Virus record (IMG/VR): IMGVR_UViG_3300027987_000212
Location: 96,001-160,000 of that record
Strand: one strand, 5' to 3'
From: a virus
Length of the DNA stretch: 64,000 nucleotides
Below, in pieces: positions 5,969 through 24,922 of this stretch; within the stretch, counting starts at the first letter, position 1, and the number at the start of each line of letters is the position of its first letter. Made by a program: the position numbers and the translations under genes. Below the pieces are notes generated by a model. It was not told where the DNA came from, did not search any database, and saw nothing but the letters and a program-made list of their open reading frames with translations.

Positions 5969-7845
5969 TAGGGTATCGATAGTTTGAAGCCAGCACTCAC
6001 ACCGACGCTACTACCAATACCGAAACCACCTCCTACAGACAAAGTCAACTCACCAAACGACCCCGCAGGTGCGGGACAAGGCGTACCGCCCAAGTTGCTT
6101 TGGCCGAAGCCAAGTAGCCGCTCAGCCGTCAAGTCGGACCGCGCCTGAGCAGAAGACCGCGCGCTGCCTGTGACATCCAGAATCCCATCCAGCGACACGA
6201 CGGCAAATGCGGAGGGCTTACCCCCGATAGCAAACGACGCACCACCAGCCAGCCCTGTTGTACTGGCACCGATGCCAATACCAGAACCAAACACTGTGGA
6301 GTCTTGCCGTGGCTTCAAGAAACGTTCGAATGCACTACGGTTGTCTTGTACACCCGCCAACGTGAACTTACTCGGGTCTTTGAACCCTGGGTCCCCTGCA
6401 GCCCCCAAACCACCGCCGTAGCCGCTCCCACCAAATGACCCAAAGCCGGCTTGCCCAAACCCTGGCCCAGATACAAAGTCACTGCGATAGCCGTAATCGG
6501 CATCCCCTGCCCCCTGCACAAAGCGGTTGTCTTTCTGCCGTTCATCTACGACAGACCTACCGTACACAGCACCCAACGGGTCTTGTGAAAGACTACTACT
6601 GTAACTCGTGGTAGGTTCAGCCAACGCAGACAATCCGTAGCCAAACCCAGCACCGCTCTGCGGCTGGAAGGTGGCCCCTAGCTTTGCGTCTACCCGCGCA
6701 GATAACCCGATACCGCTCAGTGCACTGGGGGTATCGAGGTTTGCCCCATAGCAAGACAGGAATGAGATAGCCGCGAAGAACAAGTCCTCAGCCTCGAGCT
6801 GGCTGCGTATCGTCGGGGTCAGTGAGTTAGGGATACTCCCGTCGCCAAATCCGAAGTACGTGTTCCCGTCCTGCCCCACGTACTCATCGATGTTGTTTGC
6901 GATGAGACTACGCAAAGGTCTTCCAGACCGAAACACTAGGTCTGTCAGGTTGATGCCCTCGACTTGGTCTGCTACTCGATTGATGGCTGCCTGCACATCC
7001 GGAGCAACTGCATACGTAGGGGGCATCTCGCGTAAGAACGCGCTGAGCTTTTTACGCTGACCAATGCCTCCCTCATTGATGATGTCACGAATATCGTTAC
7101 CCTTGACGCCCACACTCTCACTGTTGATGGTATCGAGCGCAGCCCCCTGATAGTGCACCGTCAGGTCTTCCGCAGCCCGGCCGCCTGTGAGCTCTATGCC
7201 CGGTGGTATGTACGCGCTAGCTCGTATCGGGAAGTTGGGGTCCCCGATGAACGAGACATTTCGGTAGCTAGTGATGAACATCTGGAAGTTCATCTGCACC
7301 AAGAATTGCTCCGTACTCAGCTTTACGGCAGCGCAATTGAGCATGTACCCCTCTACGATGTTGTCGTCGTAGAACAGGTACATGCGAGCTCCCAGCTCAA
7401 CCAGCCGCGTACCTCGGAAGTACTGCTCGTAGTTCTCCCACCACTCTGCCTCCCAGTTGAAGTCGTGCGAATTGATGAGAACGGCTTGCACGTTCAAGAA
7501 ACGCGGATTCTCTCCAAAGAAATGGATGTAGGACGCACCAAACGTCTCGACAACTTGGTGCTTCTCCATTCGTTGCTCCTGTACTTGCTGCAGGATGAAG
7601 TTAGCGTAACCGCTGGAGGTCTTGCCATCAGGACTGCTCGAGTCGGTAAGTGGTATCTCCGTACCGTCTGCTTGAATTACCTTCACTGCCCCGTAAGTGT
7701 CCTCCTTGAGCTCGAGTCCCCGCGTCGGTCGACGCGCTACCCGGCGACCAGCCCGACGACTCCTCGAACCACGCGACCTCTTTGCCTGCTGATTACTCAG
7801 CACTTGTTCGAACGCATCAGTAGTAAGCTCAACGAAGACGGCCAT
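5968..7845 (-). CDS. Putative baseplate / tail-tube initiator protein
   Basis: QEQRMEKHQVVETFGASYIHFFGENPRFLNVQAVL tube-like N-terminal domain, positioned between tape measure and hub. Confidence 0.5.
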   Translation of the reverse strand: MAVFVELTTDAFEQVLSNQQAKRSRGSRSRRAGRRVARRPTRGLELKEDTYGAVKVIQADGTEIPLTDSSSPDGKTSSGYANFILQQVQEQRMEKHQVVETFGASYIHFFGENPRFLNVQAVLINSHDFNWEAEWWENYEQYFRGTRLVELGARMYLFYDDNIVEGYMLNCAAVKLSTEQFLVQMNFQMFITSYRNVSFIGDPNFPIRASAYIPPGIELTGGRAAEDLTVHYQGAALDTINSESVGVKGNDIRDIINEGGIGQRKKLSAFLREMPPTYAVAPDVQAAINRVADQVEGINLTDLVFRSGRPLRSLIANNIDEYVGQDGNTYFGFGDGSIPNSLTPTIRSQLEAEDLFFAAISFLSCYGANLDTPSALSGIGLSARVDAKLGATFQPQSGAGFGYGLSALAEPTTSYSSSLSQDPLGAVYGRSVVDERQKDNRFVQGAGDADYGYRSDFVSGPGFGQAGFGSFGGSGYGGGLGAAGDPGFKDPSKFTLAGVQDNRSAFERFLKPRQDSTVFGSGIGIGASTTGLAGGASFAIGGKPSAFAVVSLDGILDVTGSARSSAQARSDLTAERLLGFGQSNLGGTPCPAPAGSFGELTLSVGGGFGIGSSVGVSAGFKLSIP

Positions 7846-8111
7846 CAGATAATCACCGAAGACTTGATGAGGAAATCACGCACACTACGGTCTGGCGGCG
7901 TACCGTTGTACGCCTCTCCTGTTTGGATGGCAAAAGCAGCGGCCTTGACAAGGACCAGGTACGGGTCCTCCGGCAACACCTTGTCGCGCAGTACGAATTG
8001 GTAGATGCGCCCACCCCGGCGAATGTTGATGGGCACCTCAACCCTACCTGCGCCGCAACCCACGGGTTCAATGAAGGGGGTGGCCCCCGTCTGGTGTAGG
8101 AGTGAACGCAT
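7845..8111 (-). CDS. Hypothetical tail-module protein
   Basis: Tightly packed (1-2 nt junctions) in the tail operon. Confidence 0.65.
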   Translation of the reverse strand: MRSLLHQTGATPFIEPVGCGAGRVEVPINIRRGGRIYQFVLRDKVLPEDPYLVLVKAAAFAIQTGEAYNGTPPDRSVRDFLIKSSVII

Positions 8112-8112
8112 A

Positions 8113-11100
8113 CTACCCTAGTAATCCGCCAAGGAAGCCCCCGCCAGCGTTTGCCTCGGCATTCGACGTCTTCTGCCAAGTGTCCATCACAGCACTAGCC
8201 ACAGACTTACCGGACTTCTCGATTGCAGTCTTCAACTCGTCGAGCTTCTTGTTCCGTTCTCGGTCGAGTGGGTTCTCCTCTTCCTGCCGAGCCAACTTTT
8301 GCTTTGTTTGTGCTTCCTGGAACTTACCCGCAACAGCTGTGATTCTGCTTGCAGCCGTACCAGACTCGCCCTTCATCGTACTCTCGATGGCCTTCGTCAG
8401 GTCTTCGCCCACCCCACCCTGCATAGACACGCCTGAGCTTTCAGCCAACGCAGTAGCAATGTCAGACGCGCTCCGCCCTTGCTTGACCATACTTTGGATG
8501 TCTTTGGTGTCCAGTCCCGTACCCAGCGCACTGGCGATGGCTGCGATACCCCCGCCCTTGCCGCGCTTTGACCCCCGCTCGATGCGTGCCTGCAACGAAG
8601 CCTGCCCCAACAACGTAGACCGAATATCGCCGGTACCGGCCGTACCCTGTAGGGCGGCTGCCATGCGGCGCTTCTCGTCAACACTCATCCCCGACAACTC
8701 ATCCTGCTCGAGCCCAACCATCTTCTGAATCTGCCCAAAGATGGCGCTCCGCTCTGAGTCAGTTTGCCCCGCTGTACCGAGTTTGGCCTCCAAGCCCTTA
8801 CGTACTGTCGTACTCTCGAGGAACTGCTGCGCAGCAGTCTGACGGTCGTTCCCGCGGAAGCCAATAGACGCCATTCGGTCGGAGACATCCGTGGACAACT
8901 GCAGCTTGCCCGTCTCTGCGTTGCGTTGCAGCACCCCGCCACGACGCATGGTGTCGACTTGCTCCCGCGCTGCCGCGCCGTAACGCTCGGCTGCCTCCGC
9001 CCGCGCACTCTCTTGCCCTGCGGCCGCGACCCCGCCAATGCCTCTAGCGCGCCGACTTACCTCATCTGCGGTGAGCCCCGACTCCTTGGCCAAACGCTGG
9101 GCCACCGCGCGCTGCTCTTGCGGGCTCCCGGCGCCGCCAAGTTCTTGGGCGAAAATCATGCTCTGTAGAGCACCCTTGCGCCCCTCTTCCTGGTCGGTCA
9201 GCTCCCCCTTTCGCTGCAGCCGAGTGAGCTCCTTCTCGATGGACGCACGCGCCTCCCGGCGCACGCCCTCATTCTGGTCGAGCGCGCGAAGCGCGTAGTC
9301 CCGCCCCTCGTCGCTTGCCAAGTACTCCCCCGCGCCGCGCACGGCTTTCTCCGACAAGCCCCGGTCGGCATACTTCCCACCGCCCATCGCCGACGCAAGC
9401 CCCCGTAACCCCAGAGTTTGGGTCATGAAGCGCATGGTACGGCCCTGCCCCGACGTACCGAACAGGGCAGAGCCCACCGCCGAGTCCCGCTCGCCCACCG
9501 TCGAGAAGTTACTCGAGCCGTAGATGCCCTGCATCTCCGGCGAGGCAAACATGCTGGACTCCCCCTCAATGCCTGCCGACTCCGTCAGCGTAGCCATGAT
9601 TTGCGCGCGTTCCTCCGCACCTGCCTTGCGGTACCGCTCTTCGAGCTTGGAGAACTGCCCGCCTTTGTCTTGAGCGAGGCGCCCGAGGGCGCCCCCAAAA
9701 CTAGACAAGCGCTGCATCCCCTTACCCTCTACCGCGCCGAGCGCAAACTGCCTCCGAAGGTCGTCACCAGCCTCTGCCCCCAGCTTGGCTACGTCTGCGC
9801 GTCCGCGTAGCTCCGAGCCACCAGTCTGAAAAGCAGTCGAAACACCCCGAACCATGTCCAGCCCACGCTGCAACTCAGCATTCGTTCGAGAGGTACCCAA
9901 GTTGTACCCCGCTGCCTGATACCGGTCGGCGTCGACCTCTCGAAAAGACTCGAGGTCTGTCCGCGCCTTCCCGCCCAAACCAAAGTCAGCACCGCGTCCA
10001 CCTCCACCGAAGAGGCTACCGCCAACCCCAAGTGTGCGCCGCATTGCCTCGGCACCAGTCGCTCCGCCCTTCATGCCCGTCTCGTACGCGCGAGATACAT
10101 CCCTGCGCAGCTCCTTGACGTAGTTACCCGTGAGCTTGTTGATGGTACCTTCTACTAAGCCAGACATGTCCGTGTAGAAGTCCGCACCAACTTGCTGCAG
10201 CGTAGCCTGCACATCAGCTCGAGCTTTCTCGAACTTGTGCTTCAACCCTTCGATACCTGTGTGTGACTGACGCTGCTTCAACTTCTGTGCAAAGTCTTCG
10301 TCAGTTGCTGACTGCTTGCGCTGCTCCAGCATTGCTGGGAGTGCTTGAATCTGCTTCATCATCACATCGGCCTCATCGCGTCCAAGGCCTAGTCGACGCT
10401 GCATGAAAATCATGGAGCGGTCGTTACCCTCGTCCAAGTTCATCCCACGCTCATCCAGCCAGTTCTTCATCACCATGGCTGGCAGCAGACCACCAAAGCG
10501 CTCCATCGCAGCGCCGCGCAATCGACCTTCATTGCGAATGAAGTCTGCACGACCTACCTTCGACATGTTCTTCTGCCACATTTGGCGAGTCCGTTCCGTG
10601 CCGACGCCTCCGGACATGTACTCTTCGACATCGCCTTCATTGAGGCGCCCGCCTTTGCCTGCAACGGAAGCCAAGAAACGTCGCCCAAGCCCGCCCTTCA
10701 AGAATTGCGCAGTAGAACTCAACTGCTGCGTAGCCAACGCACGACGTCCTTCCGCCCCAGCCAACCCAGTAGCGTTGTAGATGTCCTCCTCACTCAAAGC
10801 ACCAGCCTGCTGAGCAACTCCGATGTTTGTCATCGTCTCGAGCCCAGCCTGTGCCCCCGCACTACCCAGACCGCCTATAGAGCGCGAAATCTGTGAACCA
10901 ATGTTCATCATGCCCGTCAACTCTGACGTTGCAAGACCACCAGCCCTAGCGCCGCTGCGAATCTTACGCGCAAACGACGTAGCCTGCTGATTGCCGAATA
11001 CGCCGCTTGAGCGCATCTCGCTCATCATCTTCTGCGCCTCTTCGAGGCTAGTACCCATCTCCGAAGCAATTTCCTTCAGAGACTTCACCATGGTGCGGAA

Positions 11101-11691
11101 CTTCTCGGTGAACTGCTTGGCATCACGCACACCTTGGTCCATGCCCATACGACCCATGTTGGTCGCAAGTCGTCCTAGTTCCTCGAAGCCCACCATTTCC
11201 CCCGCCTGCCCAGACTCCGTACTCATCTGGCGGAGAGACCCGCCAATGTCGCTCAGCTGCCCACGCGTGAACCCGTAACCGCCCTGCGGATTCGAGAACT
11301 GGTAGGTAGAGCGCATCAAGCCGTTGAACTGTTGCTGGCCTCGAGCACCTTCAAGCATCTGCCCGCCCGTATACGTCAGACCTGCCAAGGCGCCACTGGC
11401 TAAACCAAAAGCACCTAGCCCTGCTGCCCCCGCACCAAGTGCACCAAATCGGGAGCCGCCCATACCAGCCTTCAAGGCTAAAGACATGGGGTCCAGCCCA
11501 GCCATACCAAGACCCAAGGCCATGCCGGGGCCGGCAACGGCCGAGCCCACGTTGAGGGCGCGACCAACAACCCCCTCCGCCTCCGAGGCGCCACTCTGCG
11601 GCACGTTCAGCATTGAAGCGTGCTGCATTTGCATCATGTACTGTTGTTGGAAAGCCCCGCCCATCTGGGCAATCTCAGCCGAGGAAATCAC
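8113..11691 (-). CDS. Tail tape measure protein
   Basis: 1192 aa, Gly/Ala-rich and helical, with an N-proximal hydrophobic Gly-rich segment, upstream of baseplate genes. Confidence 0.75.
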   Translation of the reverse strand: MISSAEIAQMGGAFQQQYMMQMQHASMLNVPQSGASEAEGVVGRALNVGSAVAGPGMALGLGMAGLDPMSLALKAGMGGSRFGALGAGAAGLGAFGLASGALAGLTYTGGQMLEGARGQQQFNGLMRSTYQFSNPQGGYGFTRGQLSDIGGSLRQMSTESGQAGEMVGFEELGRLATNMGRMGMDQGVRDAKQFTEKFRTMVKSLKEIASEMGTSLEEAQKMMSEMRSSGVFGNQQATSFARKIRSGARAGGLATSELTGMMNIGSQISRSIGGLGSAGAQAGLETMTNIGVAQQAGALSEEDIYNATGLAGAEGRRALATQQLSSTAQFLKGGLGRRFLASVAGKGGRLNEGDVEEYMSGGVGTERTRQMWQKNMSKVGRADFIRNEGRLRGAAMERFGGLLPAMVMKNWLDERGMNLDEGNDRSMIFMQRRLGLGRDEADVMMKQIQALPAMLEQRKQSATDEDFAQKLKQRQSHTGIEGLKHKFEKARADVQATLQQVGADFYTDMSGLVEGTINKLTGNYVKELRRDVSRAYETGMKGGATGAEAMRRTLGVGGSLFGGGGRGADFGLGGKARTDLESFREVDADRYQAAGYNLGTSRTNAELQRGLDMVRGVSTAFQTGGSELRGRADVAKLGAEAGDDLRRQFALGAVEGKGMQRLSSFGGALGRLAQDKGGQFSKLEERYRKAGAEERAQIMATLTESAGIEGESSMFASPEMQGIYGSSNFSTVGERDSAVGSALFGTSGQGRTMRFMTQTLGLRGLASAMGGGKYADRGLSEKAVRGAGEYLASDEGRDYALRALDQNEGVRREARASIEKELTRLQRKGELTDQEEGRKGALQSMIFAQELGGAGSPQEQRAVAQRLAKESGLTADEVSRRARGIGGVAAAGQESARAEAAERYGAAAREQVDTMRRGGVLQRNAETGKLQLSTDVSDRMASIGFRGNDRQTAAQQFLESTTVRKGLEAKLGTAGQTDSERSAIFGQIQKMVGLEQDELSGMSVDEKRRMAAALQGTAGTGDIRSTLLGQASLQARIERGSKRGKGGGIAAIASALGTGLDTKDIQSMVKQGRSASDIATALAESSGVSMQGGVGEDLTKAIESTMKGESGTAASRITAVAGKFQEAQTKQKLARQEEENPLDRERNKKLDELKTAIEKSGKSVASAVMDTWQKTSNAEANAGGGFLGGLLG

Positions 11692-11697
11692 GACCGT

Positions 11698-11706
11698 ACT
11701 CTACCA
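11698..11706 (-). promoter_or_regulatory. Candidate extended -10 element (TGgTAGAGT) 6 nt before the SD-less GTG start of the tape measure gene
   Basis: Minus strand reads CTCGTGG-TAGAGT-ACGGTC-GTG. Confidence 0.4.
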
Positions 11707-11718
11707 CGAGTACCCGCG

Positions 11719-11746
11719 GCAAAAAGACCGAACAGCGGGGATAAGA
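11719..11746 (+). promoter_or_regulatory. Putative phage promoter motif, copy 1 (GCAA...GGGATAAGA)
   Basis: One of five intergenic copies, all preceding plus-strand units. Spacer is 1 nt shorter than in the other four. Confidence 0.55.
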
Positions 11747-11747
11747 A

Positions 11748-11869
11748 CAGTGGACGGTATGCCTACCCCAGTGGCTGGGGCAGGAGGCTTCTCTCGGTTG
11801 CTCCTAGGGAGTCCAGACCTTGTCCACTGAAGTGCTGCTCAGCTCAGGGCTACTGGGTAGCACTTCTTT
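11748..11869 (+). ncRNA. Candidate structured small RNA or leader with a terminal terminator-like hairpin
   Basis: CAGTGGAC(11748-55) pairs with GTCCACTG(11822-29), with an internal hairpin at 11762-84. A 14-bp stem 11829-42/11853-66 is followed by TTT. Flanked by two promoter-motif copies; no convincing gene. Confidence 0.45.
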
Positions 11870-11875
11870 AGCCAC

Positions 11876-11904
11876 GCAATTGCCGAGCTACTTCCGGGAT
11901 AAGA
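11876..11904 (+). promoter_or_regulatory. Putative phage promoter motif, copy 2
   Basis: GCAA-N16-GGGATAAGA, then AAAGGAG SD and ATG at 11928. Confidence 0.6.
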
Positions 11905-11927
11905 ACTACGAAAGGAGCAACCACAAC

Positions 11928-12164
11928 ATGTTACTACAAGTTGGCGCACTGTACGCGGGCATACGTGCAGCAACCTACGTTATCGAGCGGGTACTACTAC
12001 CTCTGAAAGGAATCAAGAGAGACGGGAGCACGACATTCGTAGAACGAACCATACTGGTGACGGCAGAGGAAGACCAGCGACTCAACGACGGTCCCTGGGG
12101 GGCTGTCCTCCGCGCAGGAGCGCAGCGCGCAGCAGACTATGCTGCCGTTAAGGGGGACGCGTGA
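11928..12164 (+). CDS. Hypothetical protein (start revised to ATG 11928)
   Basis: Strong SD at 11911-17. Hydrophobic N-terminus. Confidence 0.7.
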   Translation: MLLQVGALYAGIRAATYVIERVLLPLKGIKRDGSTTFVERTILVTAEEDQRLNDGPWGAVLRAGAQRAADYAAVKGDA

Positions 12165-13742: not shown

Positions 13743-14186
13743 ATGCAACACGGCAAGACCATGCGGGCACTAACGACCCAAGACGCCACTGAACTCGCTC
13801 AATTGGAGATACGGCTGTTTCCAGACAACTGCCTCAACGAGACAACCCTAAGAAATGAGATATCCCGTGGGGTTGGTTGGGCCATACTCGACAACCAAGG
13901 ACAACTAGCTGGATATGCGCTAGGCGTGTTCAGCGAAGCAAGCCAACTGTTTGACCTACTTCGACTAGGGGTCGTACCTGGGCACCGCCGACAAGGGCAC
14001 GGTCGCGCGCTGCTGCGCGCAGCCACTACAAGCTTCCCGAGGTGCATGCTTACCGTAGCTGCAGAGAACCAGGCGGCGCGCACACTTTACCACAACGAAG
14101 GGTTCAAACTACTGGGCGTACTACCAAGCGGGGCACTCCTGTTGTGGGTCACTTCATCGACACCAGCCGGTACTGCTTCCCGCTAG
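13743..14186 (+). CDS. RimI-like GNAT acetyltransferase
   Basis: LLRLGVVPGHRRQGHGRALL (motif A, R/Q-x-x-G-x-G/A) and LTVAAENQAARTLYHNEGF (motif B). Confidence 0.85.
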   Translation: MQHGKTMRALTTQDATELAQLEIRLFPDNCLNETTLRNEISRGVGWAILDNQGQLAGYALGVFSEASQLFDLLRLGVVPGHRRQGHGRALLRAATTSFPRCMLTVAAENQAARTLYHNEGFKLLGVLPSGALLLWVTSSTPAGTASR

Positions 14187-24181: not shown

Positions 24182-24922
24182 CTACCTCTGAGGAAACAGG
24201 GCCTCCATCATACTACCCGTTCGCTGCTCTAGTGTCGCCAAGTCGGAATCATTCACCAACACGTGGGACAGCATACTGTCGGGTACTTCCAACTGCTCGG
24301 TTTCACTGACGTGCGTAGTCGTGGGTGGGTCGACCCGCGGGTTGCGTACTCGAATGACCTTGCCGCCAACGCGGTAGATGGCTTCCACCTCATTGATGAA
24401 GCGACAGTCGGGTATCACCACTAGAGAATGCTCAGTCCAGTCGTGGGGTTCGTCCAACTTTACTAGACCTGCAGCTTGAACGTAGCCCAGCCACCTTCCC
24501 GCGCTCAATTGCTGAATGACGTCCAGTACCTCGTCCACCCAAATGTCTGGGTAGTGCATCCGACCCCACTCCGTACCCAGCGTACGCAGGGCGTCGCGCG
24601 GCGTAACGAAAGCCTCGGTAAGCAGCGGCTCATACTGCTTGACGAGGACATTGTCCCGAATGGCTGCCTCTAGCGTTAGGCCATACTTTGCCCCAAACAT
24701 CGCGGTAAGCTGGCTGCGCAACTCAGCGTTTCGGCAGTAGCGAAGGTCAGGCCGGTTTCTTTCCGGACTGGGACCCCACAGCTGGTCAAGGCTGAAGCCA
24801 AAAACATCCAGGCAGATGCGTTTTATCTTGTCGGCCAAAGCGACGGTCACTGCCGGCTTGGCGAACACAGCTGTCGTGTCTTTGCCGACACCCGCATTGC
24901 CCATTATTCCTAAAATGTTCAT
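24182..24922 (-). CDS. Deoxynucleoside monophosphate kinase (T4 gp1-like)
   Basis: P-loop GNAGVGKDT, ALADKIK, TPRDALRTLGTEWGR, VVIPDCRFINE and HVSET. Confidence 0.9.
   Translation of the reverse strand: MNILGIMGNAGVGKDTTAVFAKPAVTVALADKIKRICLDVFGFSLDQLWGPSPERNRPDLRYCRNAELRSQLTAMFGAKYGLTLEAAIRDNVLVKQYEPLLTEAFVTPRDALRTLGTEWGRMHYPDIWVDEVLDVIQQLSAGRWLGYVQAAGLVKLDEPHDWTEHSLVVIPDCRFINEVEAIYRVGGKVIRVRNPRVDPPTTTHVSETEQLEVPDSMLSHVLVNDSDLATLEQRTGSMMEALFPQR

Follow-up and report, generated by a model that had tools for sequence, protein, structure and literature searches.

The window, the whole 64,000-nt stretch of DNA analysed here, spans bases 96001-160000 of a virus record that is complete at 185,327 bp and carries direct terminal repeats. 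A candidate RNA sits in a 236-nt divergent gap between a tape-measure-like gene on the minus strand and a gene for a 78-aa protein on the plus strand. The features of this locus are the following, in window positions (SD, Shine-Dalgarno; RBS, ribosome-binding site):

8113..11691, minus strand: tape-measure-like gene from the ORF list (1192 aa; GTG start at 11689-91), first gene of the structural operon
11698..11706, minus strand: extended -10-like box TGGTAGAGT, 6 nt before the tape-measure-like GTG and outside the RNA
11719..11745, plus strand: promoter P1, with a -35-like GCAA (11719-22), a 15-nt spacer and the -10 box GGGATAAG (11738-45)
11748-55 with 11822-29, plus strand: closing stem, CAGTGGAC with GTCCACTG, from a check of the sequence
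11749-58 with 11817-19 and 11822-28, plus strand: closing helix in the RNAfold MFE and centroid structures, enclosing hairpins 2 and 3
11750..11869, plus strand: predicted small RNA of ~118 nt, with its 5' end inferred at 11750-53 and its 3' end at ~11869
11762-84, plus strand: hairpin 2 (RNAfold)
11786-11814, plus strand: hairpin 3 (RNAfold)
11796..11805, plus strand: seed GGTTGCTCCT at the tip of hairpin 3, an anti-RBS/anti-SD segment and exact reverse complement of 11913-22
11829..11869, plus strand: terminator-like 3' end, a 14-bp GC-rich hairpin (11829-66) with TTT (11867-69)
11876..11903, plus strand: promoter P2, with GCAA (11876-79), a 16-nt spacer and GGGATAAG (11896-903), serving the 78-aa gene
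11913..11922, plus strand: proposed target AGGAGCAACC, covering the SD and spacer ahead of the 78-aa gene, 5 nt from the ATG
11928..12164, plus strand: 78-aa gene (ORF and start), which opens an array of small genes and is the proposed regulated gene

The tape-measure-like protein has 415 homologues, with identities of 31-57%, and its N-terminus is conserved from the GTG at 11689-91 onward. It has no Pfam or PHROG match, so the label 'tape measure' refers to its length, Gly/Ala-rich composition and position only. Directly after this gene lies an 88-aa ORF (7845-8111, minus strand), with a counterpart of 87-88 aa in every related locus with gene calls. The 78-aa protein, also without a match in Pfam or PHROG, has a hydrophobic N-terminus and an ...LVTAEE... 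motif. A family of small proteins with a hydrophobic N-terminus and xLTxEE holds its position in many relatives, whether the RNA is present or absent. Farther into the window, a GNAT acetyltransferase gene (13743-14186, plus strand; Pfam E 1.5e-9) occupies the same relative position in four related loci (L003, L005, L006 and L043). Cultured phages yielded no DNA or protein match to the region or to two tape-measure proteins, and searches of viral contigs with single proteins or an exact 20-mer retrieved no close relative. Among sequencing runs, none of RNA contained the stretch, and two DNA runs that shared a small part of its words yielded only short fragments unrelated to it, so that they gave neither variants nor covariation.

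The -10 box GGGATAAG occurs 13 times genome-wide, 12 of them on the plus strand, each time with a GCAA-like box 15-16 nt upstream. All sites except P1 are followed by an SD and a start codon 23-43 nt downstream; P1 is the sole one of the 13 without a gene within ~45 nt. Judged by this recurrent pattern, GCAA-N15-16-GGGATAAG is this genome's own promoter class, and P1 is predicted to fire. P1 and P2 both carry the two boxes at the spacing of the class, in the same orientation as the unit that follows. As a promoter P1 is thus ordinary for the class; what is abnormal is its product, ~180 nt without a gene. P2 lies ahead of the 78-aa gene, as an earlier note on this DNA had said of a second promoter copy serving the next gene. 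The word GGGATAAGAAC has three copies in the window, where 0.46 would be expected.

Across the gap, relatives retain the box TGGTAGAGT in the form CTCTACCACG, at 6-11 nt from the start codon; the genome has six copies of TGGTAGAGT, five of them on the minus strand. This box is probably the late promoter of the tape-measure-like gene, with a leaderless or near-leaderless mRNA, and its copies suggest a second (late) promoter class with mRNAs of this kind. A global switch from SD-led to leaderless translation was considered and rejected, given that internal genes of late operons still need SDs. With TGGTAGAGT only 6 nt from the tape-measure-like start, the folded stretch falls outside the tape-measure transcript.

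The positions that the earlier note had given for the promoter copies, the closing stem, the inner hairpins and the 14-bp hairpin with TTT all agree with the sequence, and the fold is better than those of dinucleotide shuffles. On the plus strand, 11748-11869 has an MFE of -58.1 kcal/mol (z = -3.21), with one of 200 shuffles as good, and a fold started from 11752 gives z -3.0. The region of hairpins 2 and 3 contains AGGAG (11782-86), CTCCT (11801-05) and CTCC-TAG-GGAG. The terminator claimed by the earlier note holds as to the 14-bp hairpin and the TTT, but the T run after the hairpin is short (three T, or 5/6 counting the last stem pairs). A terminator scan reported only the inner 5-bp form of the 11829-66 hairpin, at a rate no higher than in shuffles.

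A good fold is also found on the minus strand (z -3.9), as it would be for any set of hairpins. Of the plus-strand pairs, however, four are G-U and turn into A-C mismatches there, which interrupts the long hairpin, and the 14-bp hairpin is continuous on the plus strand only, via two G-U pairs; the loss of these pairs favours the plus strand. The minus-strand fold and the divergent gap would also suit an element acting on the tape-measure operon, as its 5' leader or as a control region upstream of it. We find such an element barely credible: its G-U pairs break, P1 points the opposite way, and the conserved TGGTAGAGT places the beginning of the tape-measure mRNA beyond the element. Moreover, in relatives in which an HNH-like gene has been inserted at this locus, the RNA moves away from the tape-measure gene.

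A comparison with all 4227 Rfam families, including C4 antisense RNA, riboswitches, 6S and tmRNA, gave no match in the window at the gathering threshold. At E values up to 10, the region 11650-11960 had no relevant match, and ARAGORN found no tRNA or tmRNA gene in the window. The earlier note had likewise assigned the RNA to no known family. It had also seen no credible ORF inside, and the sole frame there, 23-26 codons from GTG 11750 or ATG 11759 to TGA 11828-30, has no SD and no counterpart in relatives.

The upstream regions of the tape-measure homologues were fetched from 113 loci, 91 of them distinct (individual loci are given below as L and a number). In ~42 of the 91, P1 stands directly before a gene and there is no RNA, while in ~27-30 it leads into 65-240 nt of non-coding sequence, beyond which lies a small gene whose product has a hydrophobic N-terminus. 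The usual order in the RNA-bearing loci is a hairpin with a U-rich run, TTAGC, a second promoter, an SD and the small gene. The architecture of the window is therefore common in the lineage, with sequences that differ between sub-groups. The fold z of 23 RNAs from all groups has a median of -3.6, and an Rfam search at E up to 1 gave no match in seven related loci. ARAGORN detected no tRNA gene in 14 related loci, a result on which we dropped a tRNA-like reading raised by a T-loop-like GGGTTCGAGTC in L012.

Six loci (L006, L042, L018, L056, L076 and L084) carry an HNH-like gene between the tape-measure gene and the RNA, which keeps its own promoter. In the four of them with a small downstream gene (L006, L042, L018 and L084), the RNA is still beside that gene. 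The RNA unit is thus tied to the small gene rather than to the tape-measure promoter. The inserted gene, of 165-211 aa, is Cys-rich, HNH/AP2-like and on the opposite strand (e.g. L006:3218-3853 and L042:2356-2970), and looks like a homing-endonuclease insertion. Two further arrangements were seen in the slot. A third group of RNAs (L012:2745-2915, minus strand; L094; L045) has GGTCTCCTTCAA in common. In L016, ~280-420 nt upstream of the tape-measure start and on the opposite strand, a GGCATAAGAAC promoter is followed by a short hairpin with TTT, TTAGCC and the next promoter, apparently an empty cassette.

Two RNA families were resolved in the slot. For family A, five aligned sequences yielded a covariance model (R1) that found 10 strong and 2 weak members, with ten relatives scoring 75-167 bits. 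In the first five sequences, 20 of 37 pairs were compensatory (RNAalifold). With ten sequences, 91.6% of cells were paired, against 37-52% when the partners were slid, and 26 of the 37 pairs had a compensatory change; none of 500 shuffles reached any of these measures. The family is characterised by a closing helix, a CU-rich strand, a YTTYGGCAAG hairpin and CCCCAC with a long hairpin. Its RNAs precede hydrophobic mini-proteins of 37-45 aa with a common LK(I/V)HN-like motif (L015, L022, L067, L058, L075, L018 and L084), a protein family that has probably never been annotated before.

The family B model (R2), built from three sequences, found two further members, five in all. In these, 89.9% of cells were paired and 29 of 49 pairs were compensatory. 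The family combines a bipartite closing helix, an inner hairpin, a small hairpin and a terminator; the closing helix, with the same bipartite geometry as that of the window, has 12 of its 16 pairs covarying. Such strong covariation shows that the RNAs in the slot of relatives are selected for structure, in both families.

Neither model recovered the window's RNA as a detectable member. The family A model had no match at default settings and, with filters off in the gap, reached 0.9 bits on the terminator hairpin. The family B model gave a marginal full-length match in a shifted register when run against the 241-nt gap alone (7.0 bits, E 0.014) and no match in a search of the whole window. The window and family B nevertheless have a common geometry: the promoter is closely followed by a bipartite closing helix starting with GACGG, the interior is CU-rich, and a long hairpin at the 3' end abuts TTAGC and P2. 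The covariation that the earlier note had proposed to look for is thus found in the same slot, in families A and B, but not in the window's RNA itself, whose own helices are without direct covariation support because no relative is close enough to align. We treat this RNA as a divergent analogue in a conserved slot, sharing architecture and position with the families, not sequence.

The reading frames inside these RNAs are not conserved, being interrupted in four of the ten members of family A and in four of the five of family B. This bears on the possibility that the window encodes a peptide of 23-26 aa (GTG 11750 or ATG 11759 to TGA 11828-30), perhaps from a leaderless mRNA. Its open frame spans the closing helix almost exactly, and six of ten family A members have frames of at least 33 codons open from the first RTG. 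However, besides the broken frames and the missing SD, the sequences are unrelated between families, and the compensatory pair changes suit an RNA rather than a coding sequence. Furthermore, by our own estimate, roughly 40% of random sequences at ~60% G+C would contain a frame this long without a stop. We regard a peptide as highly improbable. The gap very probably contains a real small-RNA gene, best read as a new RNA that is absent from Rfam and of a known regulatory kind.

The RNAs in the slot expose CU-rich anti-SD motifs, a new observation here. Every one of them contains CU-rich words, TCTCCTTC for example, which complement the SD regions of genes in the same phages. CTCCT is present in 33 copies in 23 RNAs, against 10.2 ± 3.0 in dinucleotide shuffles, and the longest perfect complements between each RNA and its own downstream RBS sum to 169 nt, against 130 ± 4.6 nt when shuffled; the motif enrichment corresponds to z about 7-8. 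Across 27 loci, cognate RNA/RBS pairs average 7.37 nt of complementarity and non-cognate pairs 6.60 nt (permutation p = 0.001), a modest excess of <1 nt on average that is driven by ~10 loci. The reverse-complement control for the same loci gives 5.07 versus 5.29 nt (p = 0.92), and the duplex energies of cognate and non-cognate pairs differ with p = 0.017. Long cognate matches, with flanks that differ between loci, occur in the window (10 nt), L043 (10), L007 (11), L067 (10), L012 (9) and L018 (9). The 11-mer that complements the L007 seed is found nowhere in that phage record except at the adjacent RBS. In 16 of the 27 loci the cognate complementarity is 7 nt or less, and so no better there than generic SD/anti-SD pairing. 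Four family A loci (L040, L056, L076 and L080) have a next gene without SD or P2, and the CU-rich runs also pair with SD-like purine runs inside the RNAs.

In the window, the seed matches the target exactly over 10 nt (P = 0.008 versus dinucleotide shuffles). In the predicted ensembles the seeds are largely single-stranded: the mean unpaired probability of the window's seed is 0.57, compared with 0.28 for the whole RNA, and the seeds of several relatives reach 0.87-0.97. The core 10-bp duplex has an energy of -17.2 kcal/mol, or -12.8 net after opening both partners, whereas a 16S-type anti-SD on the same target has -7.9. These values come from a core-duplex calculation; full-length duplexfold was set aside, as its duplexes were unrealistic. 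The window's RNA thus carries one mark of the anti-RBS class, an accessible segment complementary to the SD region of its target beyond chance. The stretch that the earlier note had called an alternatively pairing segment turns out to contain the apparent functional core, a loop-exposed anti-ribosome-site seed that matches the RBS of the next gene.

These results also bear on whether the locus is a functionless remnant, that is, an emptied gene cassette or a PeSL-like terminator-promoter junction into which a promoter happens to fire. The genomes are built of promoter-gene-hairpin cassettes, in L016 a promoter is followed at once by a hairpin and the next promoter, the slot lacks an RNA in ~42 of 91 loci, and the sequence of the window's RNA is conserved in no relative. 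A remnant would, however, hardly be expected to show a structure that covaries in two families in the same slot, an RNA kept beside the small gene across HNH insertions, the enrichment of the CU-rich motif, or, in the window, a fold z of -3.2 together with an exact 10-nt match to the neighbour's RBS. We consider it quite improbable.

A structured RNA with another role would be under the same selection for structure. Its CU-rich loops could bind a protein or serve as a decoy or sponge (for ribosomal protein S1, a phage translational regulator or a host factor, for instance), or could mimic the 16S 3' end and so influence SD-led translation as a whole. The CU-rich motif is indeed general, several of the RNAs carry CACCTCCTT, identical to the 16S 3' end, and non-cognate complementarity is itself high (6.6 nt versus 5.3 nt in the antisense control). 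Yet there is a cognate-specific excess, the flanks covary, and a global anti-SD RNA would also strike the phage's own SD-led genes. We therefore find this reading distinctly unlikely.

We predict that the locus is a self-contained sRNA gene, transcribed from a phage promoter of its own and ended by its own terminator, and that a seed in the RNA's loop pairs with the neighbouring RBS and represses the gene; we give this full account about an even chance. In this scheme, P1 would start transcription at ~11750-53, and the transcript would fold into the closing helix with its two inner hairpins and end at the 14-bp hairpin and U run, at a length of ~118 nt. The tip of hairpin 3 would expose GGUUGCUCCU, which would pair with AGGAGCAACC, the SD and spacer of the P2-driven 78-aa gene. 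The pairing would block ribosome loading and so lower the translation of the small protein with the hydrophobic N-terminus. Transcription, termination, action in trans and repression of the 78-aa gene are all steps that we infer.

The same complementarity between seed and RBS would fit a leader or attenuator acting in cis. Transcripts reading through from P1 into the 78-aa gene would have their SD masked by the upstream anti-SD, so that only transcripts from P2, or those with an unfolded leader, would be translated. This reading is kept alive by L036, where the equivalent folded element forms an ordinary 5' UTR and both terminator and P2 are missing. The short U tract of the window and the alternative pairings of its internal AGGAG and CTCCT also speak for it. 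On the other hand, most relatives have a strong hairpin with 4-7 U, then a full second promoter right before the gene. In the window, the anti-SD and the SD are ~110 nt apart with the 14-bp hairpin between them, and there is no match to a riboswitch or leader family. We judge a cis-acting leader to be unlikely, if still worth weighing. The earlier note had left the choice between an sRNA and a switchable leader, a joint reading now supported by the promoter class, the fold, the lack of an Rfam or tRNA match and the syntenic covarying cassettes, with the transcript itself a prediction.

Under the preferred reading, an sRNA acting in trans, a few similar ribosome sites elsewhere in the phage may be further partners of GGUUGCUCCU. 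The window's seed matches other RBSs of the genome, over 11 nt at 24404 and 75081 and over 9 nt at 178689; that at 75081 precedes a 72-aa gene. The neighbour need not, then, be the sole or main target, and a small regulon is possible. At genome 24415-26972 (L123:1616-4173), a 428-aa AAA gene (MoxR-like, with a weak AAA_5 match) is followed by a DUF2201 metallopeptidase-like/VWA gene, and the RBS of the AAA-like gene (CTAGGAGCAAC before the ATG) matches the RNA seed over 11 nt. A genome-wide RNAduplex ranking of targets was set aside because of a noisy start list from which the adjacent gene was missing and unconstrained duplexes that were unrealistic. We also rejected GGAGCAAC as a special mark of a regulon: it ties for the commonest 4-mer after GGAG (6 of 227 RBS-like sites), which is too few.

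Extending this reading to the lineage, we tentatively suggest, as a possibility that we do not rate highly, that a clade of uncultured 150-200-kb phages with their own RNA polymerase maintains a fast-evolving 'sRNA slot' at the head of a non-structural gene array. The seed and the RBS of the adjacent gene for a small membrane protein would co-evolve, and the RNA would act, within a lytic phage, as a type-I-antitoxin-like brake on a membrane-active protein, transcribed by the phage sigma factor and polymerase.

To our knowledge, the regulatory RNAs of large lytic phages have barely been charted, and we know of none described for this lineage, the uncultured relatives of phages with their own bacterial-type RNA polymerase and sigma factors. 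If confirmed, the RNAs of this slot would add new families to the catalogues, two of them already with solid covariation support. They would also provide a clean natural case of co-variation between the seed of an sRNA and the ribosome site of its neighbour, and would mark the small conserved protein with the hydrophobic N-terminus as a product whose dose the phage must control. The module of promoter, RNA, terminator and target is short, portable and testable in a heterologous host.

Phage antisense RNAs offer the first comparison. They include c4, which targets the ant mRNA, and the sas RNA of P22 sieB (PMC12197685). Like the proposed RNA, sar of P22 and sas of P22 sieB modulate the translation of one phage gene by pairing with its mRNA. 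They are overlapping, fully complementary cis-antisense RNAs, whereas the RNA of the window lies on the same strand as its proposed target and upstream of it. A partial likeness may also be drawn to the PeSL elements of T4-type phages, junctions of a stem-loop and an early promoter, in that the hairpin at 11829-69 abuts P2 and such cassettes recur in the genome. PeSLs, however, are junction modules rather than RNAs equipped with a promoter, inner covarying helices and a seed.

In the type I toxin-antitoxin pairs IstR-1/tisB and OrzO/zorO, the sRNA gene adjoins the gene for a small hydrophobic protein and acts through a short stretch of trans complementarity in the 5' region or RBS of the mRNA. 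The window has a similar layout, an sRNA gene next to the gene for a small protein with a hydrophobic N-terminus, for which a toxin role would be putative. It differs in that the complementarity is 10 nt rather than ~20 nt and that about half of the relatives lack the RNA but still have the protein. At 78 aa, the protein also exceeds classic type I toxins in length, although the products encoded behind family A RNAs are hydrophobic mini-proteins of 37-45 aa.

In the c4 RNA of P1 and P7, exposed loops pair with the RBS of the mRNA of the controlled gene and prevent its translation. The RNA of the window is likewise small, highly folded and phage-encoded, and its gene lies immediately ahead of the one that it is here proposed to control. 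Unlike c4, which is processed from an operon transcript and uses two loop segments, it has no Rfam match, its own predicted promoter and terminator and one 10-nt seed. It belongs to a large phage with its own RNA polymerase, in which no immunity or antirepressor context is visible. By analogy, its design most closely resembles that of the P1/P7 c4 RNA and of the type I antitoxins encoded beside their toxin gene.
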